A stretch of DNA of 30,922 bases from Candidatus Thorarchaeota archaeon (GTDB lineage: Archaea; Asgardarchaeota; Thorarchaeia; Thorarchaeales; Thorarchaeaceae): contig JBHLRS010000036.1 of assembly GCA_048882325.1 (NCBI GenBank), forward strand, positions 1-30,922, in the 5' to 3' direction. This document shows positions 1 through 25,305 of the stretch, one piece after another. The notes beneath the pieces are model-generated. The model was not told where the DNA came from, ran no database searches, and saw only the letters and a program-made list of their open reading frames with translations. The position numbers and the translations under genes are program-made. How positions within the stretch are numbered: position 1 is the stretch's first letter; each line of letters opens with the position of its first letter.

Positions 1-2070
1 GGAGGAAAGAGTGACACTCCTGAGGTGAGAGAGAGGACAACCAATTTAGTCAAGACTATACTCGAGAAAATTCCAGCGGACTATTCACCAAATCATGATA
101 TTGATCTTATACTCGAAGTCACTGGTTGGGGACAGAAGTGGCGTCACGAATTATATGTGAAAGCTTCTGGTCTGAAAGAGAGTGCACTTTCACTTCGAGA
201 TGAGTTATTGCGAGAACACCCCTCAGAAGTCCCTGAAACTACTGTACTAAAAATGGGACTTGAAAACATATTGGGTCAGGTAGAATATACAAAAGGTCGT
301 TTAACGGATGCTGTAGTTCCATTGTCTAGCTGGGCATCGATTGCTTCTGCAATTTCTGAACGGTTCTGCAAGCCCGTCCATGATCTAAAGGGTTTGAGAT
401 ATGCTCATGAAATTCGAATGGCTATGCTTGATGAACTTGAGCGAGAATTCAATATTCCCACAACTTTGGAGGATTATGAAGCACGAATGGGTCGCGTTGT
501 GACTACGAAAGCAGCAGAGATTCTGACATCTGATTCGGATAATGCACTTGAAACGATCTCAAGCTTCCTTCGTGTAGATGTTGACGATATAAGAGCACAA
601 CTTCGGAGGAAAGGAATCAGTGACCCTTCAATCATTGGTCCTGGTCTTCGGGCATTGACCGAGGAAATTGTTTCTGAAACATCCCAACCAGAAGTCAGTA
701 AGGAAGAACTCGAGATGCTTGAGCGGTCATTGAGAACCCTTGAGAAGATGGAAAAGACACTCAATGGACCTGTAAAGGGAATGCTTCGCTCAAGAGGTCT
801 CAGAGCCGCTGAGCTAGACAAAATCAATGTTGAGATGTTTGCCAAAGACCGCTCGAAACTTGTTGGCATTGAGGTCGAGGTTCTTGAGGCACTGAAGAAG
901 AAGATGAGAGTTCCCCCTCCAGATGAGGTGGAACGTCTTCTAAAGACGCGAGAACAGGTGCAAAGTGGAGCTCTGAGTAATCTTGGTATCTCCTCTGCTC
1001 GTGACTTCAGTCAACAACGAGCTGAGGAAGAAACAGTACTCAGCTTGCGTCTTGACATCATCTGGCACTTTACAATTGGGATTCTGACTAACCTGACTAG
1101 AGTTGTTGAGTCATATATACGATCGAAGCAGGATCTGTTGAGAATAAAGGCTCTCCTCAAGAGCATCTACGAAGACACCGATATGGTTTTGCAATTCCTA
1201 CGAGAAGAAATTCTGATTGACCTTGCATCAATGAGGATCTATGAGATGAAGGTTCTCTATCCTGAGCTAGATGCAAAAACAATCTGCACTTGGATGCATG
1301 CTCGTTTCTCAAGTAAAGACATGACAGCTGCCAGTAAAGACCTTGAAACTTCGACAAGTCCAGTTTTCGAAGGGATTGTCGATAGACCTCTGAATATGTC
1401 AAGCTTGGAGTTTGACAATTATGCAATTGCTTTTGATATCATGCAGCGATTTCTGAAGCAGGAACGTCTGGAGAAGCTCGCAAAGGAAGAGTTTGCATTT
1501 GAAACCAAGCAGAAGGAGAAGCGGAGAATCGAGGAGAAGAAAGAGGGCATCGATGTCCTGATGTATCTTCATAACAAAGCTCGTACCGTTTTCCGTGCAA
1601 TTAATCGCGTTGGCATAAAGGGCCTTGAATGGACTCCTAATGACACAACCAAATGTGCCAACTTGCTAGCTTACTACATCAAGATCAATCGTGGACGAAA
1701 GATTTGCACTGCTTGTGGTTCAGTTCCGATGGATGCGAAGTGCAAGCAGCATGGCGGCAATTTTATGAAAGATGCTTCAGATATGGACAATCTTTCTGTA
1801 TTCATCATGAGAAGTCTCTTTGAAATCAAAGAAGGATTGATAGGCGAGGGTCGCGGCGTCGAACCCATGTCTTGGGACAAAGCCAAGTCGACGGTTGAAC
1901 GAGAGATTGGAATTCTCAAGAGAAAGGGTAAGCTGACCTCAAAGACAAACTTGAAGGAACTTATGCCTGGAGAGATCAATTATGTCGTAGGTCCCGCAAT
2001 GTGTGCAATTGTAGGGAAATACTTCAATGAGTCTCTCGGTTACGCGGCTCGTAGAGCTGACATCGCATAA
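1..2070 (+). CDS. Large helical/coiled-coil hypothetical protein (5'-truncated by window edge) with C-terminal CxxC-x8-CxxH putative zinc finger
   Basis: Frame is open from base 1 (GGKSDTPEV...), so GTG at 25 is probably internal. Charged helical composition; CTACGSVPMDAKCKQHG near the C-terminus. No family recognised. Confidence 0.8.
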   Translation, partial: GGKSDTPEVRERTTNLVKTILEKIPADYSPNHDIDLILEVTGWGQKWRHELYVKASGLKESALSLRDELLREHPSEVPETTVLKMGLENILGQVEYTKGRLTDAVVPLSSWASIASAISERFCKPVHDLKGLRYAHEIRMAMLDELEREFNIPTTLEDYEARMGRVVTTKAAEILTSDSDNALETISSFLRVDVDDIRAQLRRKGISDPSIIGPGLRALTEEIVSETSQPEVSKEELEMLERSLRTLEKMEKTLNGPVKGMLRSRGLRAAELDKINVEMFAKDRSKLVGIEVEVLEALKKKMRVPPPDEVERLLKTREQVQSGALSNLGISSARDFSQQRAEEETVLSLRLDIIWHFTIGILTNLTRVVESYIRSKQDLLRIKALLKSIYEDTDMVLQFLREEILIDLASMRIYEMKVLYPELDAKTICTWMHARFSSKDMTAASKDLETSTSPVFEGIVDRPLNMSSLEFDNYAIAFDIMQRFLKQERLEKLAKEEFAFETKQKEKRRIEEKKEGIDVLMYLHNKARTVFRAINRVGIKGLEWTPNDTTKCANLLAYYIKINRGRKICTACGSVPMDAKCKQHGGNFMKDASDMDNLSVFIMRSLFEIKEGLIGEGRGVEPMSWDKAKSTVEREIGILKRKGKLTSKTNLKELMPGEINYVVGPAMCAIVGKYFNESLGYAARRADIA

Positions 2071-2396: not shown

Positions 2397-2497
2397 GACC
2401 TATTAATCACCATCTTGCCATATAGCGACTTCTGTTGGTCTTTCATAAAGCGAAGGTCATTTATACCCACTCAAAAGCTCGGGGGCTCGGTGATTCC

Positions 2498-3895
2498 GTG
2501 AGAAAATTCAAGCCAATAGGAGTAATGCCTGCACTCGTCACTCCCTTCACTCGCGATGGGGACATCAGTGAGGAAGGTTACAAGCAGGTCATTGACTATA
2601 CAATTGAAAATGGTGCCACGGGAGTAGTTACTCTTGGAACCACCGGAGAATTCTCCTATCTACGAACAGAAGAACGCAAGAAGATGCTGAAACTAACTCT
2701 GGAGTATGTTGATGGAAGAGTTCCAATTATAGCTGGAACAGGACAGCATAGCACTCGCGCTACAGTAGACCTCACAAAATATGCTGCAGATCTTGGATGC
2801 GATGCAGCGCTGGTGATATCTCCTTATTATCTCCGACCATCTGACAAAGGATACTATGAACATTATGCGACTGTCTCGAGAAAAGCTGACCTCCCAGTCT
2901 TGATGTACAATATTCCTCAATGCACCCTCGGAGTCCTTAATTCTAATATCGTCGAGGACTTGGCTGAGCTTGACAACATCATTGGTATCAAGGATAGTAG
3001 TGGAAGTGTTCCGTACATTCTCGAACTGATTCAGAAGCTCAAAGGTAAGATGGAAGTCATAATTGGGGCAGACGAGTGTTTCTTGTCAGCAGTTGTAGCA
3101 GGTTCAAAAGCGGCGATAATGGCTTCAGCTAACGTCATTCCTCACCTCTGGCTTGAAATAATGAGGTTGGCTCAAAGTGGAAAGATAGAGGAAGCCGCTG
3201 AGCTTCAACAGACCACTCAGACCTTTGCTCGAATGGTTTTAAAATATGGAGCAGCTCCTCCTGTGAAAGCCGCTCTTAGAATGTTGGGTGTCAAGGCTGG
3301 TCGTTCCAGGATGCCTTTGGATAGCGGAGGAACACTCACCCCTGAGATAAAAGAAGAGATTCGTATTGAACTTGAGAGAATGGGTCTGATTGAGAATATT
3401 GACCACGAAACCGTTCAGAAGGACATTCATATTCTTGAATTTTTGAAGGAGCAAGGTGTAGCTATCCGTGAAACTGCAGAGATTCAATCCAGCTTCGCAG
3501 CTAATGATACGGTATCAGCAGGCATCGTTGTAGGTCGAAAGAATGGTCCTTTGGGTCATGCCTTTGTCCAGTTACTGACAATGCCAAAAAATGGTCATGA
3601 AGCATTGACAGTTATCCTTGAGCCGAACCTACCTGTCAAACCAAGTAGCCTAATGCTCCCTATAAGGAAGATCCAATCAATGCGTCAAGCTTCTCTCTTC
3701 TATGGCCCTATACAATCAGGAGCTGCTAAAGCCATCGCAGCATTCTTGGAGGCTGGAAAGATTCCCAAGAACTCCTTGACCGATGATGTGACAATCCTTG
3801 CACTGGATATTGATTTGAATGCAAGAGACCGCCGTGAGCTCACGACAGCAGCACAACAAGCTGTTGAAAGTGCACTTGCGGGAATATGGGGGTGA
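2498..3895 (+). CDS. DapA/NAL-family class I aldolase fused to C-terminal Fae-like domain (paralog 1)
   Basis: PALVTPF, GTTGEF, PYY, YNIP, GIKDSSG (Schiff-base Lys). The C-terminal ~140 aa carry the Fae-type segments ILEPNLPVKP and RQA..FYGP.QSG.AKA. Start moved to GTG 2498, preceded by a GGTGA SD. Confidence 0.88.
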   Translation: MRKFKPIGVMPALVTPFTRDGDISEEGYKQVIDYTIENGATGVVTLGTTGEFSYLRTEERKKMLKLTLEYVDGRVPIIAGTGQHSTRATVDLTKYAADLGCDAALVISPYYLRPSDKGYYEHYATVSRKADLPVLMYNIPQCTLGVLNSNIVEDLAELDNIIGIKDSSGSVPYILELIQKLKGKMEVIIGADECFLSAVVAGSKAAIMASANVIPHLWLEIMRLAQSGKIEEAAELQQTTQTFARMVLKYGAAPPVKAALRMLGVKAGRSRMPLDSGGTLTPEIKEEIRIELERMGLIENIDHETVQKDIHILEFLKEQGVAIRETAEIQSSFAANDTVSAGIVVGRKNGPLGHAFVQLLTMPKNGHEALTVILEPNLPVKPSSLMLPIRKIQSMRQASLFYGPIQSGAAKAIAAFLEAGKIPKNSLTDDVTILALDIDLNARDRRELTTAAQQAVESALAGIWG

Positions 3896-3900
3896 ACAAA

Positions 3901-5376
3901 ATGCCAAAGAAATATCGCTTCAAAGGTGTGTACCCCGCGCTGGTCACACCTTTCAATGAGAATGGTGTAAATGAAAAACAGTATCGGGGTCTAATTGAAC
4001 ACACCATCAAACTTGGAGCCACTGGAATAGTTCCATGCGGAACGACGGGTGAGTTCACAAGCATGAGGTTTGAAGAGAAGGTTGATGCAATCCGTATTGC
4101 GTGTGAGGTCGCAAAAGGTCGAGTTCCTGTCTTGGCTGGAACTGGAGCTGCATATACTGGTGATGTTGTTAAGTTAACCCGAAGAGCGGCTGAATTGGGT
4201 GCAGCAGGCGCACTTGTGGTGTCACCGTATTTTCTTAAACCATCGGACAAGGAGATCTATGAGCACTTTGAGAAGGTCGCAAACAACAGTGACATACCAA
4301 TCTTTGTCTATAACATTCCTCAAGTAACAGGAGTCCCATTACACTGGACACTCATTGATGGACTCCGAGAGATTGATGGCATCATAGGTCTTAAAGACTC
4401 CAGTGGCGATTTGATCAATCTAACCACCATTCTTGTGAGAAAACCCGAAAACTTTCAGGTAGTTGTGGGTCATGATGAGGTAGCACTCCCAGCCCTCGCT
4501 TCAGGCTGCGATGGGGCAATCCTAGCCAGTGCCAATGTTTTTCCTGACCGTTATCTCAAAATGCAGACAGCTCTTGCTACGGGGGACCTGAAGGAAGCTC
4601 TCATTATTCAGCGAAGTATTCAGAAGATAGTTCGTATCTTTGTTAATCATGGTGGAGGATTAGCTGTCAAGGCTGCTCTAAATATGATGGGCGTTCCTGT
4701 TGGGTCAGCAAGACCACCCCTAGAGATTGGTGATGCATTAGGCTATGATATGTATGACGAGATTCGAACTTGTCTTGAAGACCTTCAGATGATTCCTCGT
4801 GGTATTGTCACTTTCAAGATGGGAGACCGGTCCATTGAGTCAGAGGCTTATCCAAAAGCAGTGGGTATGGTCCCTGATGTCATTGAGGATTTGACACTAC
4901 TTCATGGTGAAGCACTCTTTGGTGGTGGAAGTGACGTTGCCCATGTTGATTTGATTCTAGGGTTGCGTGATGGTCCCATGAGTGTGGCTCTAAAGAATGC
5001 TGGAAAAATCACTGAGAACACTCATCCATCCAATATTATCAAGGATTTGGAGCTAGCAACAGTCTTTGCTCCTACTGTTACAATAACTTCAGAGAAACAC
5101 AAGGCAATGGTTTATGACGTAGCACAGAGAGCAGTTGCTGATGCAGTTCGAAGGACAATCACAGACACAATCATTCCCGAGGAACTTGTACCGGATTTGG
5201 TGATTGCAGCGAATGTTTTCGTTCACCCAAATGCTGTTAATCCAACACGCGTTCACATCAACAACTTCATTGCAGTGCGACACGCCATCCGTAGAGCTTT
5301 AGAAGGCCGTCAGAGTGTGGAGGAGATTGTTGCTAGAAAGGATTCTGCAAGACATCCATTCGCTTACAATCCCTAA
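3901..5376 (+). CDS. DapA/NAL-family class I aldolase fused to C-terminal Fae-like domain (paralog 2)
   Basis: PALVTPF, GTTGEF, YNIP, GLKDSSG. C-terminus has Fae motifs GEALFGGG..VAHVDLILG, AQRAVADAV, VFVHPNA, AIRRALEG and terminal HPF. ATG 3901 is preceded by a GGGGTGA SD that contains the upstream stop codon. Confidence 0.9.
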   Translation: MPKKYRFKGVYPALVTPFNENGVNEKQYRGLIEHTIKLGATGIVPCGTTGEFTSMRFEEKVDAIRIACEVAKGRVPVLAGTGAAYTGDVVKLTRRAAELGAAGALVVSPYFLKPSDKEIYEHFEKVANNSDIPIFVYNIPQVTGVPLHWTLIDGLREIDGIIGLKDSSGDLINLTTILVRKPENFQVVVGHDEVALPALASGCDGAILASANVFPDRYLKMQTALATGDLKEALIIQRSIQKIVRIFVNHGGGLAVKAALNMMGVPVGSARPPLEIGDALGYDMYDEIRTCLEDLQMIPRGIVTFKMGDRSIESEAYPKAVGMVPDVIEDLTLLHGEALFGGGSDVAHVDLILGLRDGPMSVALKNAGKITENTHPSNIIKDLELATVFAPTVTITSEKHKAMVYDVAQRAVADAVRRTITDTIIPEELVPDLVIAANVFVHPNAVNPTRVHINNFIAVRHAIRRALEGRQSVEEIVARKDSARHPFAYNP

Positions 5377-6178: not shown

Positions 6179-7306
6179 ATGGATAAGTCCCGTATGTTGT
6201 CCCTTCTCAAAGACCTCTTAGCTGCCAACTCGCAGAATCCTCCTGGATATGAAGCTGACGTGGCAAAGGTCCTTCAAGATCATCTGGAATCTTTTGGCAT
6301 TGCATGCACCTCAGTTGGTCCAGCAAAGCGTCCCAATCTGATCTTTTCCAGCCACGACGGTCAGAAAGGTGACATCATTATGCACGGTCATATGGACACA
6401 GTTCCTGTAGGTCCAACAAAGGATTGGACCCATGACCCATTCGCTTCAGAAATTGTTAATGGCCGACTCTACGGAAGAGGCGCTTGCGATATGAAAGGTC
6501 CTATCGCCGCTCTTGTTGAGACCCTAATTCTCTATACTGAGGAGCGACATGCAAAGCCTCTTGTTGTACTCACAACATCAGATGAAGAGAGTGGTTGCTC
6601 TGGGGCTGAAGAGGTTGCTGCCAGCGGACTCCTCAACGGAATCCGTTATGGTGTTTGTGCAGAACCAACAGGTCTACAAGTTCTTGTTGGAGAGAAAGGG
6701 ATGTTCTGGTCTAAGGTCGTTGCAAAAGGAAAGTCTGCTCATGGTTCGCGACCGGAGGAAGGAATCAACGCAATTCAAGATTGTATAGATGCAATCAATA
6801 TTATCAAGGAGGAGGAGTTCTCGTATGAACCTGATGACCTACTTGGTGAGCCCACATTGAACATCGGGATGATTGAAGGTGGTATCAAAATTAATGTGGT
6901 TCCCGACCATTGTGAAGCTCAGCTTGACATGCGTATTGTGATGGGTCAAGATCCTGACTCTCTCTTGAAAGCGATGAATGGCCGACTAGAACACGCAGGA
7001 CTATCTGATAGAGTCAAGGTTGAATATGTGCATGGCCAACCAGCAGTTCTGACACCCACTGATTCTGAGATTGTGAAATTAGCTCAATCTACAGTGGAAC
7101 GAGAAACAGGAACCAGACCTACTTTGGGCACAGCTACATATGGAACAGATTGTTCAGTATTGCAACCCAAAGTTGGTATTCAACATGTAATCTGTGGACC
7201 AGGTTCGATAGAACAAGCTCATCAGCCTGATGAATACATTTCAATTGATGAGTTGCATAAATCTGTGAGTATCTATCTAAAGATTGCACGCTATTTTGGC
7301 GGCTGA
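6179..7306 (+). CDS. M20 family metallo-hydrolase (ArgE/DapE-like deacylase)
   Basis: HGHMDTVP, GRGACDMKG, SDEE, AEPT, HGSRPEEG, GGIKINVVPD, AHQPDE motifs. Confidence 0.93.
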   Translation: MDKSRMLSLLKDLLAANSQNPPGYEADVAKVLQDHLESFGIACTSVGPAKRPNLIFSSHDGQKGDIIMHGHMDTVPVGPTKDWTHDPFASEIVNGRLYGRGACDMKGPIAALVETLILYTEERHAKPLVVLTTSDEESGCSGAEEVAASGLLNGIRYGVCAEPTGLQVLVGEKGMFWSKVVAKGKSAHGSRPEEGINAIQDCIDAINIIKEEEFSYEPDDLLGEPTLNIGMIEGGIKINVVPDHCEAQLDMRIVMGQDPDSLLKAMNGRLEHAGLSDRVKVEYVHGQPAVLTPTDSEIVKLAQSTVERETGTRPTLGTATYGTDCSVLQPKVGIQHVICGPGSIEQAHQPDEYISIDELHKSVSIYLKIARYFGG

Positions 7307-12525: not shown

Positions 12526-13377
12526 TTATGCTACTTTTGCCTCTGCCTTGCCCTCTAATATTGCTCTTCTAATGATTTGAATGAGTCTATCTCTGTACGA
12601 GATATCAATAGCAACAAGCTCATAGGTTGGTATCCCAAGTATCTGTCCGACCCGTTCAGGAGTAAGAGCTGTCGGTAGGTCCTGTTTGTTAGCTATACCA
12701 ATCACCTTCGCATCAGGCACCTCATCTTTTACAAGGGTCACCAACTTCTTGCTTCTCAAGACATTCTCAAGAGTACTATCGGTTACGATAATTACAACCT
12801 GGGCATTCGCAATCATCTTTGCCCAAAGTATACTGAATCGCGACTGACCTGCCAAGTCCCAGAGGACAATGTTTGCGTTCTCAACCTCTTCTGGTAGCTT
12901 CTTTATCGATACACCAATGGTTGGGTCATGAACAAGTGGTAGGGTTTCTCCACGAAGTAGATGAAGGGTAGTTGTCTTACCAACTCCTGCAAAACCAAGA
13001 ATTGCTACCTTTACCATTGTGACTGCAATCTCATCGACCTTTTCATCAAATCCATCAAGAGGTTGATTTGCTTGTGCGAGGTTTGCATAGTCTCTCATGA
13101 ATGAATCAACTAGCTGATCCATTTTTTCTTCGATTTGTGTTGAGTCATCGGCTTTGTCTGCAACGAACATGAAAGTGAAGTTCTCCCTCTGTGCGAAGAA
13201 GATTCGTGATATAGCCACGTTCATGAACTCCGTTTTGTTCTCAAGATCGACAGTTCTCAGATAGTTTGTGAGATTGATCAGAAACTCAACCAAGTCCGTC
13301 TTCGACTCGCTCTTGGCATAATCCTTGGAATAAAGCATGTTGCCTTGTTCACCAAGCACATAGACGCTTCTGATCAT
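12526..13377 (-). CDS. Longin-domain + Arf-like small GTPase fusion
   Basis: N-terminus MIRSVYVLGEQGNMLYSKDY resembles AP-sigma/SRX longin domains. G1 GFAGVGKTT, switch I PTIG, G3 WDLAGQSRF..LW, G4 NKQD. Confidence 0.92.
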   Translation of the reverse strand: MIRSVYVLGEQGNMLYSKDYAKSESKTDLVEFLINLTNYLRTVDLENKTEFMNVAISRIFFAQRENFTFMFVADKADDSTQIEEKMDQLVDSFMRDYANLAQANQPLDGFDEKVDEIAVTMVKVAILGFAGVGKTTTLHLLRGETLPLVHDPTIGVSIKKLPEEVENANIVLWDLAGQSRFSILWAKMIANAQVVIIVTDSTLENVLRSKKLVTLVKDEVPDAKVIGIANKQDLPTALTPERVGQILGIPTYELVAIDISYRDRLIQIIRRAILEGKAEAKVA

Positions 13378-15366: not shown

Positions 15367-15477
15367 TTTCATCTTCCACGAAACCTGCAATCAATGCTAA
15401 GGCGCGTTCAAAACTGTTATCGGTTATCCATAAGAAAGTATGAAAAGCATTCCCATGACTTCAACATAGGAATCACG

Positions 15478-17811
15478 ATGGACCTTGATCGCTGGAACCT
15501 CATTGTACCCTCAACCGCTACGAGGAGACTCCAGTTGGCAGGCGGCCAGCCAATGGAACAGGCAGTCCCAGAGGACTACGTGGTGGCTGGAATGGTTCTT
15601 CGTGCAATTGAGCAACGAGATGGCAGGGAACTTGAGTTCATACTGAAGAGTTATTTGCCAATTGCTATCGTAGATTCTCCCTTCGAAAATCGGAGCTATT
15701 TAGTAGAATTTCTCGGTCTAACTAGTGAAACTATAATACGTCATCAAAGGTTTGACACTGCCGCTCTACTAGAAGAACTGGAGTCCAGTTCTGACACAGA
15801 GACACTCTTGAAGTGTGTAAAGACCGCACGCGAGTTGGTGGCTTCACTCAGAATTACTGACCGCTCAACGCTTATCGGATTGATGAGTGGACTCATAGCT
15901 AGAGGAATTGCACAAGTTCTTGATCGACCCCTGAGGAACCAAATTGAGAATTACGAAGTCATACTCTCTGGCTTGTTGAAACAGAAGGAATTTCAAGAAT
16001 CCATCGAGGCTCTACAGGAAACTGCTGTAACGCTGAGCACTATCGAAGATACTGTCACTCATTTGATTGATCTTACAACTAGTAAAGTTGAGTCAACCGT
16101 AGAGCATACCGAAACTGAATCTGCTCCTGTTCTCTCACGTCTGGAATTACGAATAGAATCCTTGCAGAAACAAATCGAAAGTCTTGAATCCGAATTAGCT
16201 AAGCTCAAAGTGTCTTCTTCCTCCTCAAAACAAGCTCGAATCTCCGAATTAAGCAAGACCCTAACAGCCAGAAAAGCTGCACTTGAGCGTGATGAGGAGA
16301 GGAGAGACCACATTCTCTCAAATATCCGTGGAGCATCGAGAGACCTCCTTGTCGAAAGAGACAACCTAAGTGCTGAATTTCAGGCAGCATCAAAGACGAT
16401 CTACGACCAACTCTCTTCAATTATCGATATGTCTGTGCCTTTAACCACTGAAAGTAGTGGCGACAAGGGTGCACTCGTTCTATTGCCTTTCTTTATCACG
16501 GGATTCTCAAAGAAGGGACAACTTCGGATTGAGATATACCCAATTTCACAACTGATTACCAATGGTGAGAAAGTAAGTCGAAGGCGAGACTTCGTTGATG
16601 GTTTCACAAGTCCTTCGAGAACAATCGATGCATTAGCAGAATTGTTACGTGAGAGAGCAAATAATGATGTGACCTTTAGGAAAATCATCCGTGACGCATC
16701 TGAGCATTCAAACCTTCTTGGAGTGAAAGAGGCAAGAGAACTGATCCTTGATGGGGCTAAATCATTGCTTGGAGATGGTCTAGTGAAGCAACCACTAGTT
16801 CATGAATTGGAAGAAATCCTAAGTGGAATCCCCGAGGTCAAGAAAAAGAAGGGAGTAAGACGTCAAGTAACACCTCTTGTGGTTGATGGTTCACTCTCAC
16901 GTGTGAGGTTTCACATCCAAGATGAAGCGGGACGTCCAGTCGAAGGGGCTGAACTAGAGCTTGGAGCTATTTCTGCAAAGTCTGATTTCAAAGGAACCAT
17001 TGTTGTTTCAATACCTGTGAGTAGCTATGAGGGTGTTGTTAGAGCTCCGGGTTACATTGACAAACCTGTTGAGTTCACCCTTACATCGACAAGTGATGCT
17101 GCAATCCCAATCATGCTCAATTCTCTGTCCCACGAGGAACAGATTGCTGCGAAATTGGATGTATTAGTTGATAGATCGCGTAGACTAGACAAGATCCGTG
17201 AACGACTCTGGGAGGCTTTTGAAACTCAAGGGAGTACACTGCTTGGAATACCAGCATATCGAACAGCTCTTGTTGAGCTACTGTCAGAGCTTGGTTATGA
17301 GCCCGAATCATGGATCGCTGAGGCTAAGAAGAAATCGGGAATGGTGAAGCGGCTACTCAAGAGAGATGACCGTACTGATGGTCTACGGCGCGACATTTTG
17401 AGGATGGCTGAAGACTCGAAGAAGTTTGGTGGAATCATGTTGTTCTCTGAACTTCTTGTTCGTTTAGATGACTCAGGTTGGGGGACCCACGCAGATGAGA
17501 TTGAGGACATCATTGAGGCCATGACGAAGGAGGGTCTCATACAGGGTCTTTCCACTATAGAAGGTGGGGCACTTCTCGTGGAATTTGTCCCTGTAGCACT
17601 TACCAATGACCCGCAGGAAATTCTAAGTCTGGCCGCAACAGAGGATGGACGTCTAAGTATAGAAGACGCTGTCGTAGGGTTGGGTTGGACTGAAGAGCGA
17701 GTTAGAAATGCTCTTGAGCTATTGGTGAAGAATGGTGTTGCAAAGGAACAGAGAAGCTACTCCAAAAGCACCCAATATTGGTTCCCGGGTTTGAGAGGGG
17801 GAAAGAATTAA
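15478..17811 (+). CDS. Coiled-coil / beta-sandwich protein with C-terminal ESCRT-II Vps22/36 (EAP30) domain
   Basis: C-terminal GGIMLFSELL...DEIEDIIEAM...VEFVPVALTND...ILSLA...G.LS.......LGWTEERVRNALELLVKNG......YWFPGL follows Snf8/Vps22. Long heptad region LELRIESLQKQIESLESEL. VRFHIQDEAGRPVEGAELEL...G resembles a carboxypeptidase-regulatory/transthyretin-like domain. Confidence 0.85.
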   Translation: MDLDRWNLIVPSTATRRLQLAGGQPMEQAVPEDYVVAGMVLRAIEQRDGRELEFILKSYLPIAIVDSPFENRSYLVEFLGLTSETIIRHQRFDTAALLEELESSSDTETLLKCVKTARELVASLRITDRSTLIGLMSGLIARGIAQVLDRPLRNQIENYEVILSGLLKQKEFQESIEALQETAVTLSTIEDTVTHLIDLTTSKVESTVEHTETESAPVLSRLELRIESLQKQIESLESELAKLKVSSSSSKQARISELSKTLTARKAALERDEERRDHILSNIRGASRDLLVERDNLSAEFQAASKTIYDQLSSIIDMSVPLTTESSGDKGALVLLPFFITGFSKKGQLRIEIYPISQLITNGEKVSRRRDFVDGFTSPSRTIDALAELLRERANNDVTFRKIIRDASEHSNLLGVKEARELILDGAKSLLGDGLVKQPLVHELEEILSGIPEVKKKKGVRRQVTPLVVDGSLSRVRFHIQDEAGRPVEGAELELGAISAKSDFKGTIVVSIPVSSYEGVVRAPGYIDKPVEFTLTSTSDAAIPIMLNSLSHEEQIAAKLDVLVDRSRRLDKIRERLWEAFETQGSTLLGIPAYRTALVELLSELGYEPESWIAEAKKKSGMVKRLLKRDDRTDGLRRDILRMAEDSKKFGGIMLFSELLVRLDDSGWGTHADEIEDIIEAMTKEGLIQGLSTIEGGALLVEFVPVALTNDPQEILSLAATEDGRLSIEDAVVGLGWTEERVRNALELLVKNGVAKEQRSYSKSTQYWFPGLRGGKN

Positions 17812-21682: not shown

Positions 21683-23269
21683 TCACTCAGTCTTCTGTGG
21701 AGGAGGTCCATATCCTCCTCCTCCAGGAGTTTCGATCCGAACTTTGGTTCCCTTTGGTGCCACGATTGTGGTTTTAGCTTCTAATGGAAATGCCTTGTCT
21801 TCATAGGTCAATGTGTTTCGCCCACTTTTTCCAGGTTCACCTCCATTGAGACCCCATGGTTGAGAATGCCTTCGTTCAGACTGAATCGAAATGGTTGATA
21901 TGTCAGCGAGCATCTCTATCTCTCTGATAATGCCATCTCCACCCTTCCAACGACCCTTTCCTCCAGAGTTTCTTCTAATGGAATATCTGTGAATCCTGAG
22001 TGGATATTCAGTTTCTAGAGATTCAACAGGTGTATTCAATGTGTTCGTCATGTGTGTGTGAATTCCACTAACACCCGGATTTCCTTTCGATGCTCCTGAA
22101 CCTCCACCAATGGTTTCGTAAAATGAGAATGAATTTCCAGAGCGATAATCAATACCTCCTATTGTGAGGTTGTTCATCGTTCCTTGACTCGCAGCTGGAA
22201 CGAGATCGGGGAATACATTAGCTAGTGCTCCCAGCGTGACATCCACAATTCTCTGAGAGGTTTCAACATTCCCTGCAGACACTGCTGCTGGATATTTAGG
22301 ATTTAACAGAGACCCTTCAGGGACTCTAACATCAATTACTCTCCAACAGCCTTCATTCACTGGTATACCTTTACCAAGTAGTGTGATGAAGACATAGTAG
22401 ACCGACGATAGTGTCGATGCAAGTGGACAATTGACATTCCCAATGACCTGCTCTGAGGTTCCTTCGAAGTCAACTACTGCTCCTGTTTTTGTTATCTCCA
22501 AACTGATTGAGATAGGAATTTCCCATTGACCTGCTCCATCACTATCAAGATAATCAGTGAAGCTTGTTTTTGCACCAGCATTTTGGATGAGGTTTTTCCT
22601 CATCATCATTGCAGAATAGTCACGTAGCTCATTGAAGGTCCTCTTCAGAGTTGGCCAACCATATTTCCTCTGAACTTCTTCGAGTCTTCTCATTCCGACA
22701 TGATTTGCTGCAACTTGCGCTGACAGGTCTCCCAATCGTTCGTCTGGTGTTAGTGTACTTGAGAGAACATCTGTGATTGAATCTTCATGGAGCGCACTGT
22801 TTCTAACAACTATTCTAGGTTTGATCGTTATACCTTCTTCATGAATAGTTGTCGATAATCCTGGCATCGAACCAGGACTAATACCACCAATGTCTGCATG
22901 ATGCGCTCGGTTAGCTGTGAATGCTACCCTCTCTCCTTCAAAAAAGATAGGTGACACCATGGTCAAATCTGGAAGGTGTGATCCTCCTGAATACGGGTCA
23001 TTCACAAGTGCCATCGATCCTGCAACCAGTTTGCTTCCTAGACCCTCAATACATGATTTCACAGACAAAGGCATTGCACCAAGATGAACAGGAATGTCCT
23101 TAGATTGTGCAACCAGTCTTCCCTCTGCATCAAACAGTGCACAACTACAGTCTCGTCTTTCTTTAATGTTCGGACTAAATGCTGTTCTTCGTAGTGCCTG
23201 ACTCATTTCTCTTGCACTGGATATGAGAGCGTTCTTAATGACTTCAAATCTGATTGGATCTTCAATCAT
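21683..23269 (-). CDS. Hydantoinase B / 5-oxoprolinase subunit
   Basis: EM...LRRTAFSPNIKERRDCSCA, IPVHLG, NDPYSGGSHLPD, HHADIGG, TPGGGGYG. ATG 23269 overlaps the upstream stop (TAATG). Confidence 0.95.
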   Translation of the reverse strand: MIEDPIRFEVIKNALISSAREMSQALRRTAFSPNIKERRDCSCALFDAEGRLVAQSKDIPVHLGAMPLSVKSCIEGLGSKLVAGSMALVNDPYSGGSHLPDLTMVSPIFFEGERVAFTANRAHHADIGGISPGSMPGLSTTIHEEGITIKPRIVVRNSALHEDSITDVLSSTLTPDERLGDLSAQVAANHVGMRRLEEVQRKYGWPTLKRTFNELRDYSAMMMRKNLIQNAGAKTSFTDYLDSDGAGQWEIPISISLEITKTGAVVDFEGTSEQVIGNVNCPLASTLSSVYYVFITLLGKGIPVNEGCWRVIDVRVPEGSLLNPKYPAAVSAGNVETSQRIVDVTLGALANVFPDLVPAASQGTMNNLTIGGIDYRSGNSFSFYETIGGGSGASKGNPGVSGIHTHMTNTLNTPVESLETEYPLRIHRYSIRRNSGGKGRWKGGDGIIREIEMLADISTISIQSERRHSQPWGLNGGEPGKSGRNTLTYEDKAFPLEAKTTIVAPKGTKVRIETPGGGGYGPPPQKTE

Positions 23270-25305
23270 TACATTTCCCTCCTTATCCAAAGCACTCCGT
23301 CCATCTCCTGAATCGACTTCCATCCCGGACTCACGTATATCGTGGTATCCATCTGCTCAATGACTGCTGGTCCATAGACCGTCTGTCCTCTTGCGAGGTC
23401 CCAACGATAATATACATCTGCAGTAGTTCTCGTTCCGTCACCCAAGAGGACCTGTCTTTCGCTGATTGGTTCAGCCAACGTTTCAACTGAATGAACAAGA
23501 GGTGTGAATTGACTAGAGCCCGACTCAGCAACCACTCTGGCAGTGACCCACTCCACCTGCCTACCACTCATCGCATATCCGAATGCTTCTTGATGATTCA
23601 ATTCGAAATCCTGAACTGACTTCTCAACAATCTTCTTTTTTCTGTCAGGGAGATTGATGGTCAGTTCATGTGATTGTCCAACATATCTCATGTCGATTTT
23701 CCATTTCGTTCTTATTGTCTTCTTGTTCACTCCTTGCTGAACAAGTTGTTCTGATGCCTCCTCTGTTAGTTCTGACAAAGTTGCTAGAAGACTGGCCCTG
23801 TTCTCACTAACCGCTGAACTGAGGACCGTTCTCATCAAATCCACACGAAGGTCTGTACACACTAGACCAAGAGCCGATGTGATTCCAGGATGCGGAGGAA
23901 TTAGAATCTCTCCTATTTCAAGTGCTTCTGCGATATCACTAGCTTGTGTTGGTCCTGCCCCACCAAAAGGAACTAAAATGAAACTTCTAGGGTCGAATCC
24001 TCTCTCTATTGTGACCTCCCGAATTGCCTGAACCATATTAGCAGTTGAGATCCTGATAATTCCCAATGCTGTTTCATCCATGGAGAGTCCTAGTTCCGAA
24101 GACAGTTTGACTACCGCATCTTTGGCTCGATCCAAGTCTAAACGTACTTTCCCGCCCAAGAAGTAGTCCTGATTCAGACGACCAAGGACAAGATTGGCAT
24201 CTGTAACAGTGGCATCTCTACCACCATTTGGATACGAGGCAGGTCCAGGTGACGCACCCGCACTCTGTGGACCAACATGAAGAACTCCAGCTTTGTCAAT
24301 CCATGCAATACTGCCTCCACCTGCACCAATGGTCTTAACATCTACAGATGGCATTCTGAGCGGTAATCCCCCCACTTCATTGTCGGATCGCACAACAACG
24401 TCTCCGATTATGGCGCTAATATCGCAACTGGTTCCTCCCATATCCAAGGTGATTGCCTTAGATACGCCTTGGTGTTTAGCAACCTCCCAACCCCCTATCG
24501 CACCCCCAGCAAGACCAGAAATTGCTAGACCAATGGTTTTACCTTGAGTTCTCGATGCGAGCATAGTCCCCCCGTTTGATTGCATAATAGTCAGTTTACT
24601 GTTGGGACATAGAGTAGTGAATGACGAGTCCAGACGTTTCAGATATCCCGCAACTAAGGGTCCCAAGTATGCCTCAAGTACTGTAGTTGATGTTCGTTCG
24701 AACTCTCTAAATTCAGGTAATACATCGAATGACGCAACGCTGTAGAAGTTTAGATATGATTCGAGGGCTTGGAGAAGTCGTTTCTCATGCAGTTCATTTC
24801 GGAAAGAAAAGAGCAGGGAAATAGCAACTGAATCTGGCTTTCGGTTGATTACTTCTGATGTCAAACGTTCAATGGTATTGTCCTCGAGTTCAATGATAAC
24901 ATTCCCATCTGAATCTAGACGCTCTTTAACTCCTATCCTATTCTCTCTCATAACTAGAGGTTCAGCTCTACTTGCATCTAGACTGTAGATATCATCTCGA
25001 TTCTGCCTACCAATCTCTAGAACATCCTCGAGACCTTCAGTTGTGAGGAGAACGACTTTCGCACCTTTCCTCTCTAACATTGCATTAGTGGCTACAGTGG
25101 TTCCATGGACAACAAGACCAATTTCTCTACGATCAATGTTGTGCATACTAAGAATATCATTCACACCAGTAGAAACCGCTTCATCCTGAGCCCACGGAGT
25201 TGACTGCACTTTGTGTACATACTGCTCCCCAGATTCTGTATCAACAAGAATCACATCAGTGAAAGTACCACCTACATCAACTCCGATAATTCTCATCTTA
25301 AACAT
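23269..25305 (-). CDS. Hydantoinase A / 5-oxoprolinase ATP-binding subunit
   Basis: GVDVGGTFTD, HGTTVATNA, EFERTSTT, DMGGTSCD, IGAGGGSIA, FGGAGP, RYVGQSHEL. Confidence 0.95.
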   Translation of the reverse strand: MFKMRIIGVDVGGTFTDVILVDTESGEQYVHKVQSTPWAQDEAVSTGVNDILSMHNIDRREIGLVVHGTTVATNAMLERKGAKVVLLTTEGLEDVLEIGRQNRDDIYSLDASRAEPLVMRENRIGVKERLDSDGNVIIELEDNTIERLTSEVINRKPDSVAISLLFSFRNELHEKRLLQALESYLNFYSVASFDVLPEFREFERTSTTVLEAYLGPLVAGYLKRLDSSFTTLCPNSKLTIMQSNGGTMLASRTQGKTIGLAISGLAGGAIGGWEVAKHQGVSKAITLDMGGTSCDISAIIGDVVVRSDNEVGGLPLRMPSVDVKTIGAGGGSIAWIDKAGVLHVGPQSAGASPGPASYPNGGRDATVTDANLVLGRLNQDYFLGGKVRLDLDRAKDAVVKLSSELGLSMDETALGIIRISTANMVQAIREVTIERGFDPRSFILVPFGGAGPTQASDIAEALEIGEILIPPHPGITSALGLVCTDLRVDLMRTVLSSAVSENRASLLATLSELTEEASEQLVQQGVNKKTIRTKWKIDMRYVGQSHELTINLPDRKKKIVEKSVQDFELNHQEAFGYAMSGRQVEWVTARVVAESGSSQFTPLVHSVETLAEPISERQVLLGDGTRTTADVYYRWDLARGQTVYGPAVIEQMDTTIYVSPGWKSIQEMDGVLWIRREM

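Follow-up and report, generated by a model that had tools for sequence, protein, structure and literature searches.

A Candidatus Thorarchaeota archaeon (NCBI GenBank assembly GCA_048882325.1) carries, near the start of contig JBHLRS010000036.1, two adjacent genes that each join a class I aldolase of the dihydrodipicolinate synthase (DHDPS, or DapA) family to a domain of the formaldehyde-activating enzyme Fae. The stretch analyzed here, termed the window, comprises positions 1 to 30,922 of the forward strand of that contig (30,922 nucleotides), and the gene pair lies at 2498-5376. The aldolase-Fae fusion is widespread and unstudied; no paper on the DHDPS-Fae fusion architecture was found in a literature search. 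We give a probability of about one half to an anabolic role, in which the fusion would combine pyruvate with the one-carbon (C1) unit of methylene-tetrahydromethanopterin (methylene-H4MPT) to form 4-hydroxy-2-oxobutanoate (HOB), and from it homoserine; substrate, product, direction and channelling are what we infer from sequence and gene context. A broader and more tentative proposal is that many Asgard archaea and Bathyarchaeia might draw homoserine and threonine from pyruvate and Wood-Ljungdahl C1 units, not from aspartate, by means of the aldolase-Fae enzyme and a partner barrel (c4 or c1, described below), the Thorarchaeota type being an obligate heteromer with a split Fae site.

The gene pair and its Fae domains

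Two open reading frames (ORFs) on the + strand, at 2498-3895 (gene 1) and 3901-5376 (gene 2; 3886-5376 from an alternative start), each encode a DHDPS domain (PF00701) followed by a Fae domain (PF08714). By window position, with lengths in amino acids (aa), the features of the pair are:

2460..2494, +: putative expression signals of gene 1, read from the sequence: a TTTATA box-like hexamer (2460-2465) and a Shine-Dalgarno-like GGTGAT (2489-2494)
2498..3895, +: gene 1 (465 aa), DapA-derived class I aldolase domain plus truncated, degenerate Fae-like domain
2516..3322, +: aldolase (DHDPS-family) domain of gene 1 (PF00701, E 7e-76; alignments)
3515..3880, +: Fae-like half-domain of gene 1 (PF08714 positions 14-135 of 159; motif table; model interface)
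3886..3900, +: gene junction, with the TGA stop of gene 1 at 3893-3895, a Shine-Dalgarno-like GGGGTGA and the alternative ATG 3886
3901..5376, +: gene 2 (491 aa from ATG 3901; 496 aa from 3886), aldolase plus Fae domain with catalytic-type N- and C-terminal motifs
3919..4725, +: aldolase (DHDPS-family) domain of gene 2 (PF00701, E 3.5e-72; aligned to solved DHDPS structures)
4906..5361, +: Fae domain of gene 2 (PF08714 positions 2-158 of 159; alignment to Fae 1Y5Y; motif table)

Gene 1 most likely starts at GTG 2498, which gives 465 aa. The GGTGAT site sits 3 nucleotides (nt) 5' of this codon and orthologues share the same start point, both of which support the start at 2498 given in a preliminary description of this DNA. 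The most likely start of gene 2 is ATG 3901, since the resulting 491 aa match the lengths of its homologues; it is preceded by GGGGTGA at 3889-3895, within the end of gene 1. The spacing between the genes is 5 nt with this start, and the alternative ATG 3886 would create a 10-nt overlap, so that under either start the sequence predicts tight coupling. The nearest homologues of the pair are found in Thorarchaeota and Promethearchaeota metagenome-assembled genomes (MAGs), under the database label "4-hydroxy-tetrahydrodipicolinate synthase".

Profile scores for PF00701 and PF08714 are 253 and 98 bits (97.8) in gene 1 and 241 and 102 bits (102.5) in gene 2, and both Fae scores exceed the Pfam gathering score of 27 bits. 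The preliminary description had seen two adjacent, coupled fusion genes with C-termini of the Fae type, and the ORFs and profile matches confirm this. It had also taken the two to be equal, each a full barrel with a Fae domain; the barrels, with their motifs, hold up, but the Fae domain of gene 1 is incomplete and that of gene 2 is degenerate in its middle motif. What emerges instead is an ancient pair whose Fae domains are complementary and partly degenerate.

Missing from the Fae domain of gene 1 are the GEAL...AHxD segment and the last ~25 residues; the domain keeps the middle motif GHEAL.VILEPNLPVKP together with YGPxQ, and has lost the C-terminal NVFVHP...ARHPF. That of gene 2 keeps GEAL, VAHVDL and ARHPF, while its middle motif is degenerate and carries a 4-residue deletion. 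Both fall below the cut-off of TIGR03126, the Fae equivalog-domain model (118.05 bits), gene 1 at 87.0 bits and gene 2, by 0.6, at 117.4. The full set of three Fae motifs (GEAL...AHxD, EPN...VKP and RHPF) is present in neither gene alone, but it is present in the pair combined and in single-copy relatives. The same complementary losses recur in all 8 tandem pairs examined, which come from genome families f1, f8 and f21 (f1, the Thor family, includes the genome described here, G000). In these, the gene-1 copies have lost GEAL...AHxDL and NVFVHP...ARHPF and kept GHEAL.VILEPNLxV[KR]P and YGPxQ; the gene-2 copies have kept the N- and C-terminal motifs, with 4-6 residues deleted from the middle motif and YGPAQ changed to YDVAQ or similar. 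Of 115 aligned fusion proteins from Asgard archaea and Bathyarchaeia, 107 retain the Fae His, and the 8 exceptions are all gene-1 types.

In a maximum-likelihood tree, the gene-1 copies of f1, f8 and f21 form one clade (SH-aLRT 100) and the gene-2 copies form another (SH-aLRT 98), nested among the single-copy forms. The separation into two clades indicates that the pair probably arose by one ancient duplication, with pair and gene order retained since. Complementarity was also counted over 31 Fae positions that do not vary among 30 canonical Asgard Fae-Hps proteins and are also kept in single-copy fusions: gene 2 alone retains 18, gene 1 alone 4, both retain 6 and neither retains 3, so that the pair combined holds 28 of the 31.

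A model of the complex between the two Fae domains reached an ipSAE of 0.88, compared with 0.00 for the best of 3 controls; this score is attained by 58 of 80 solved complexes and by 2 of 110 mismatched pairs. Contacts were at least 88% consistent between runs, and partner pLDDT was at least 88. Gene 2 contributes to the modelled interface HGEAL, the His and Asp of VAHVD, and ARHPF, and gene 1 contributes E.LT.ILEPNLPVK and YGP.Q; the interface is made of exactly the motifs that each has retained. This face-to-face arrangement suggests that each gene 1/gene 2 heteromer may hold one composite Fae site, in which the Fae His and Asp would presumably be catalytic, a role we assume from their conservation and from general knowledge of the enzyme. 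The model shows that the pair could form a Fae-like interface, actual association being beyond its reach.

Fae condenses formaldehyde with H4MPT to give methylene-H4MPT, and is a homopentamer. Single-copy fusions (e.g. L042:8582-10087, by our locus labels, from Ca. Atabeyarchaeum) join Fae, whose solved relative is a homopentamer, to DHDPS, whose relatives are dimers or tetramers. Speculatively, this mismatch of symmetry could force large assemblies, and the split-site heteromer of the Thor family would remove it.

The aldolase domain and its DapA ancestry

The evolutionary source of the aldolase domain is clearly DapA: the best PDB matches are DHDPS (E ~1e-47), and the fold, the Schiff-base Lys161, Tyr133 and the Thr of GTTGE are common to both. 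Both genes keep GTTGE, YNIP and KDSSG, the last with the Schiff-base Lys. Across the 115 fusions Lys161 and Tyr133 are invariant, and the Thr44 position is Thr or Ser in every one. The difference lies in the acceptor site. In DHDPS, Arg138 (E. coli numbering) binds the carboxylate of aspartate semialdehyde; an alignment to solved DHDPS puts Cys of gene 1 and Val of gene 2 at this position. The preliminary description had remarked on the missing Arg after YNxP in these two proteins, and the survey extends the observation to all 115 aligned relatives: the position is Cys in 81, Val in 16, Leu in 7, Ala in 6 and Thr in 5, and Arg in none. Gly186 is followed by His, Trp or Tyr in 111 of the 115 (by Ala, Phe or Cys in the other four), giving G[HWY]DE in place of GDD. 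With Arg138 lost, the acceptor should be a small uncharged aldehyde. The Tyr107-to-Phe change was considered as a sign of a half-active aldolase dimer and dropped, as single-copy forms vary there too (PYY, PFY, PYF).

A genuine DapA acting in lysine synthesis, as the databases annotate these proteins, is highly improbable. It is true that both pass the dapA equivalog cut-off of TIGR00674 (206.15 bits), at 224.7 bits for gene 1 and 230.7 for gene 2, that the best solved-structure matches are all DHDPS and that asd is present in the genome. The TIGR00674 model, however, gives no weight to Arg138 and is passed by a small margin; that it is passed explains the database label. Arg138 is missing from all 115 relatives, the extra Fae domain is conserved in fusions across two phyla, and the gene contexts described below involve hom, thrB and thrC, genes of homoserine and threonine synthesis, rather than dap genes. 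A search for dapB (TIGR00036) found no match in this genome (3.6 Mb), which at 93% completeness leaves absence unproven; the failure to find dapB makes a DapA role unlikely all the same. The sole further DHDPS-family gene in the genome is KdgD-like. True DapA was rejected on the missing Arg138 and the dapB result, in agreement with the preliminary description, which had argued against lysine biosynthesis.

Distribution, gene context and partner barrels

The distribution of the fusion was followed in 301 Asgard and 201 Bathyarchaeia genomes. It is carried by 153 of the former and by 57 of the latter, 3 of these with tandem pairs. Of the 76 genomes of family f1, 72 have it, nearly without exception as two tandem genes, and tandem pairs are also found in f8 and f21. 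Families f9, f12, f13, f16, f18, f24 and f27 have a single-copy fusion with a near-canonical Fae domain (193-205 bits), which in f9, f12 and f13 coexists with canonical Fae-Hps. Fae-Hps was not found in Thor genomes, and the gene pair encodes the only Fae domains of the genome under study. A one-genome-per-species scan returned 493 relatives, and the best 80 of these 493 are mostly from Bathyarchaeia, with one Theionarchaea genome.

The H4MPT pathway of the carriers was checked through mch (PF02289), which is present in the genome under study (417 bits) and in 5 of 5 diverse carriers, as the link to H4MPT drawn in the preliminary description would lead one to expect. This bears on the idea that the fusion acts on some other aldehyde or substrate, with Fae-like domains that are pterin-binding, regulatory or structural modules and no formaldehyde involved. 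The divergence of the Thor Fae domains (~100 bits, against ~240 for canonical Asgard Fae-Hps), the failure of both genes to pass TIGR03126 (87 and 117.4 against 118.05) and the clear degeneracy of the gene 1 domain would all be accommodated by such a role. It is nevertheless improbable, for mch occurs in every carrier tested, the Fae domains of single-copy relatives are near-canonical, the pair combined retains 28 of the 31 conserved positions, and the retained motifs meet at the modelled interface.

The context of the fusion points to homoserine. Homoserine dehydrogenase (hom, PF00742), in counts uncorrected for relatedness, was found in 23 of the 153 fusion-bearing Asgard genomes and in 92 of the 148 others; in Bathyarchaeia the corresponding counts are 16 of 57 and 109 of 144. 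In the fusion-rich Asgard families hom falls to 3 of 112 genomes (f1 3/76, f12 0/19, f13 0/3, f27 0/11, f21 0/3). Family f9 is mixed, with the fusion only in 29 genomes, hom only in 19, both in 16 and neither in 4. A hom gene was not found in the genome under study, which encodes threonine synthase (NF006050, 439 bits; cut-off 303) and in which aspartate kinase and asd form an operon.

Individual loci tell a similar story. The Bathyarchaeia genome G334 has an operon of the fusion, thrB (NF002288, 298 bits, cut-off 194) and thrC (TIGR00260, 376 bits, cut-off 167), the last two overlapping by 4 nt; it has no hom match, and the fusion occupies the place where hom often sits. A second Bathyarchaeia genome (G466) has a bona fide hom 26 bp from the fusion, and in a third (G438, contig C8; L154:7702-9196) an intact hom directly precedes a fusion gene with a frameshift and three in-frame stops, a breakage that may reflect displacement in progress or an error of MAG assembly. 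Of 20 Bathyarchaeia genomes with the fusion and without hom, 7 have a bona fide thrB.

A conserved barrel partner, either c4 or c1, belongs to the fusion system. The first, c4, is a protein of 426-446 aa (~428) that is 62-79% identical between Asgard archaea and Bathyarchaeia and matches no family in Pfam or NCBIfam. Its homologues number at least 8000, and among the 120 matches listed all are unnamed or "hypothetical protein". Its gene lies directly 5' of the fusion in 56 of 83 loci (Bathyarchaeia and Promethearchaeota), as well as in families f9, f24 and f27, and in Bathyarchaeia it is found in 21 of 57 genomes with the fusion and 2 of 144 without. The c4 gene of the genome under study is unlinked to the pair (C18:40806-42086, corresponding to L072:7807-9087), and its neighborhood there (the S-component of an energy-coupling factor transporter, rubrerythrin) is uninformative. 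A model of c4 consists of an N-terminal helical domain and a TIM barrel; Foldseek against the PDB gives a best E of 7.5e-4 (TM 0.33), VIA Z is ~12 to many unrelated barrels, and atlas TM values are 0.42-0.45 to MTHFR, U32 and glutamate-synthase barrels. The thought that c4 might be the missing homoserine kinase found no support, given that the barrel matches no specific family and that G334 has both thrB and c4.

The second barrel, c1 (~312 aa, without an assigned family), adjoins the fusion in 9 of the 83 loci and takes the place of c4 directly 5' of the fusion in Asgard families f12, f13, f18, f8 and f21. It is modelled as a TIM barrel nearest to class II aldolases (E ~7e-8, TM ~0.5), PanB among them. 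Common ancestry of c1 and c4 is possible on the basis of a profile comparison (hhalign probability 21%, E 0.001) that is collinear over 254 columns. Examples of the two are:

L046:7237-8523 and L155:5133-6494: further c4 genes
L042:6421-7359, L052:7340-8287 and L156:9769-10716: c1 genes

In families f5, f22 and f25, which have neither the fusion nor Fae, c4 and hom lie on one contig in 23 genomes, ~1.4-8 kb apart by domain-match coordinates. Four loci read in these families (L158-L161, e.g. L159:6304-11759) have an operon of c4, a class I aminotransferase, hom and an aldehyde:ferredoxin oxidoreductase (AOR). This order matches a linear route whose compounds would be HOB, homoserine, aspartate semialdehyde and aspartate, in either direction. 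Thus c4 accompanies either the fusion or hom plus the aminotransferase, as would be expected if both routes met at a HOB/homoserine node.

The operon also lends itself to a catabolic scheme, in which HOB, from homoserine or from the c4 reaction, would be cleaved to pyruvate and formaldehyde and the latter captured by Fae as methylene-H4MPT. The c4-aminotransferase-hom-AOR order would then fit an oxidative route from a compound X through HOB, homoserine and aspartate semialdehyde to aspartate, AOR enzymes normally oxidize aldehydes, and Fae-Hps provides a precedent for the logic; the adjacency of c4 and the fusion in 56 of 83 loci and the lack of a recognizable homoserine kinase in the present genome are also compatible with it. 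That said, the joining of fusion, thrB and thrC in one operon, in a genome without a hom match, is a biosynthetic arrangement, cleavage leaves unexplained why fusion-bearing Bathyarchaeia lack biosynthetic hom while 7 of 20 retain thrB, and no source of HOB or homoserine was identified, so that a lyase role is unlikely.

Another option, in line with the resemblance of the c1 model to PanB, is that the class I aldolase and Fae together hydroxymethylate a different 2-oxo acid, for example taking 2-oxoisovalerate to ketopantoate or acting on 2-oxobutanoate. The chemistry is feasible for a Schiff-base/enamine enzyme, and the likeness to PanB (3-methyl-2-oxobutanoate hydroxymethyltransferase) extends to the net reaction, which in both would move a hydroxymethyl group from a methylene-pterin onto the C3 of a 2-oxo acid. 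PanB itself, however, is an unrelated, metal-dependent barrel without Schiff base or Fae, and it coexists with the fusion: panB is present in the genome under study, in 9 of 20 fusion-bearing Bathyarchaeia genomes and 3 of 20 that lack the fusion, and in 8 of 12 and 6 of 8 Asgard genomes, respectively (17 of 32 and 9 of 28 with both phyla pooled). Replacement of PanB was rejected on its presence here and this lack of anticorrelation. As DHDPS-family enzymes use pyruvate as a rule, and the contexts found are those of hom, thrB and thrC and not of coenzyme A biosynthesis genes, a PanB-like activity has little likelihood.

Further genes surround the pair in the window. Two genes 3' of it is a deacylase gene, whose family recurs close to the fusion in Thor genomes (f1) and in f12 by neighborhood clustering; its functional tie to the fusion is uncertain:

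6179..7306, +: M20 ArgE/DapE-family deacylase (TIGR01910, 241 bits against a cut-off of 217.6)

Two large proteins (~815 and ~870 aa) without Pfam match are conserved 5' of the pair only in Thor genomes (window 1-2070 and further 5' in L057-L061), and between their genes and the pair lies CutA1, encoded on the opposite strand (2076-2396). Farther along are two Asgard-typical eukaryote-signature genes, one for an Arf/Roc-type small GTPase with an N-terminal extension (12526-13377, -) and one for a protein of 805 aa whose C-terminal region is EAP30/Vps36-like (ESCRT-II; 15394-17811, +), followed by overlapping ORFs for the A and B subunits of a hydantoinase/oxoprolinase (21683-25305, -).

A candidate route from pyruvate to homoserine

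In the anabolic scheme that we favor, the products of genes 1 and 2 would form a single bifunctional enzyme with two kinds of subunit. Each would carry a DapA-derived class I (Lys Schiff-base) pyruvate aldolase domain whose acceptor is a small uncharged aldehyde, and the C-terminal Fae domains would interconvert methylene-H4MPT and H4MPT plus formaldehyde. At the gene 2/gene 1 interface, a composite Fae site would be built from GEAL, AHxD and ARHPF of gene 2 and EPN...VKP and YGPxQ of gene 1. This site would release formaldehyde from methylene-H4MPT, or capture it, and the pyruvate enamine on Lys161 would add to the formaldehyde to give HOB. The net reaction would be pyruvate + methylene-H4MPT + H2O <-> HOB + H4MPT, after which HOB would be transaminated to L-homoserine and feed threonine synthesis in organisms without homoserine dehydrogenase. 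The preliminary description had offered HOB as an example of the product, and this part fits the context (the anticorrelation with hom in two phyla, the fusion-thrB-thrC operon, hom beside the fusion). It had also pictured formaldehyde as released by the aldolase and handed to H4MPT, and here the context favors the opposite flow, an anabolic one from methylene-H4MPT into homoserine and threonine.

The closest known architecture is the archaeal bifunctional Fae-Hps (5,6,7,8-tetrahydromethanopterin hydro-lyase/3-hexulose-6-phosphate synthase), likewise a fusion of Fae to an aldolase whose reaction forms or cleaves a carbon-carbon bond to formaldehyde, and likewise found in H4MPT-using archaea. 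The presumed logic may also be shared, an aldolase being coupled to a C1 carrier so that free formaldehyde is kept low. The two differ in several respects. Fae is C-terminal in the fusions and N-terminal in Fae-Hps; the fusions use a class I DHDPS-family barrel, presumably on a 2-oxo acid, whereas Fae-Hps uses an Hps of the OMP-decarboxylase family on ribulose 5-phosphate; and in the Thor-type lineage two paralogous subunits would share one split Fae site. The Fae-Hps model NF009833, with a cut-off of 274 bits, scores 72 and 91 bits on the two proteins, over the Fae part alone. The pair occurs without Fae-Hps in Thor genomes, whereas several other Asgard families hold both the fusion and Fae-Hps.

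The proposed chemistry, pyruvate plus formaldehyde to HOB and, by transamination, homoserine, is also that of the synthetic homoserine cycle. The engineered cycle reportedly uses enzymes such as RhmA or YfaU, and their HOB aldolase reactions are, to our knowledge, side activities of enzymes with other roles, operating in E. coli with free formaldehyde. The fusion, by contrast, would be a dedicated natural enzyme coupled to methylene-H4MPT. Two reviews (PMC8879981, PMC7918591) cover the promiscuous HOB aldolases used in the cycle.

Several points weigh against the anabolic scheme and the split site on which its Thor version depends. No recognizable homoserine kinase was found in the genome under study (the best GHMP-type thrB score is 24 bits, and the single apgM-like gene scores under the ThrB2 cut-off), so that the chain to threonine is incomplete there, and no aminotransferase is assigned to the HOB step. 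We know of no case of HOB as a natural intermediate. Fae and AOR usually run in the aldehyde-consuming direction, which suits the catabolic scheme. Fusion and hom occur together in 23 Asgard and 16 Bathyarchaeia genomes, and because related genomes are not independent, the anticorrelation between them rests on few evolutionary events. Both proteins clear the dapA cut-off (225 and 231 against 206). The counts behind the complementarity of the Fae residues (18/4/6/3) are small and not significant by themselves, and the complex model may pass merely through likeness to the solved Fae homopentamer 1Y5Y.

If the anabolic scheme is true, it would supply a natural counterpart of the aldolase step in the engineered homoserine cycle, for a reaction known to date from engineered pathways alone, in the form of a dedicated enzyme that links pyruvate to a carrier-bound formaldehyde unit through a carbon-carbon bond. 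The scheme would amount to a new C1 entry into amino acids in two of the most abundant groups of sediment archaea, and would provide synthetic C1 assimilation with a ready-made part. Reconstructions of Asgard metabolism would change as well, for under the DapA label lysine biosynthesis is wrongly inferred and threonine biosynthesis is read as incomplete. The split Fae site would offer a clean natural case of an interface active site divided between paralogues after duplication, and the c4 barrel, with its thousands of homologues, gains a testable metabolic neighborhood.

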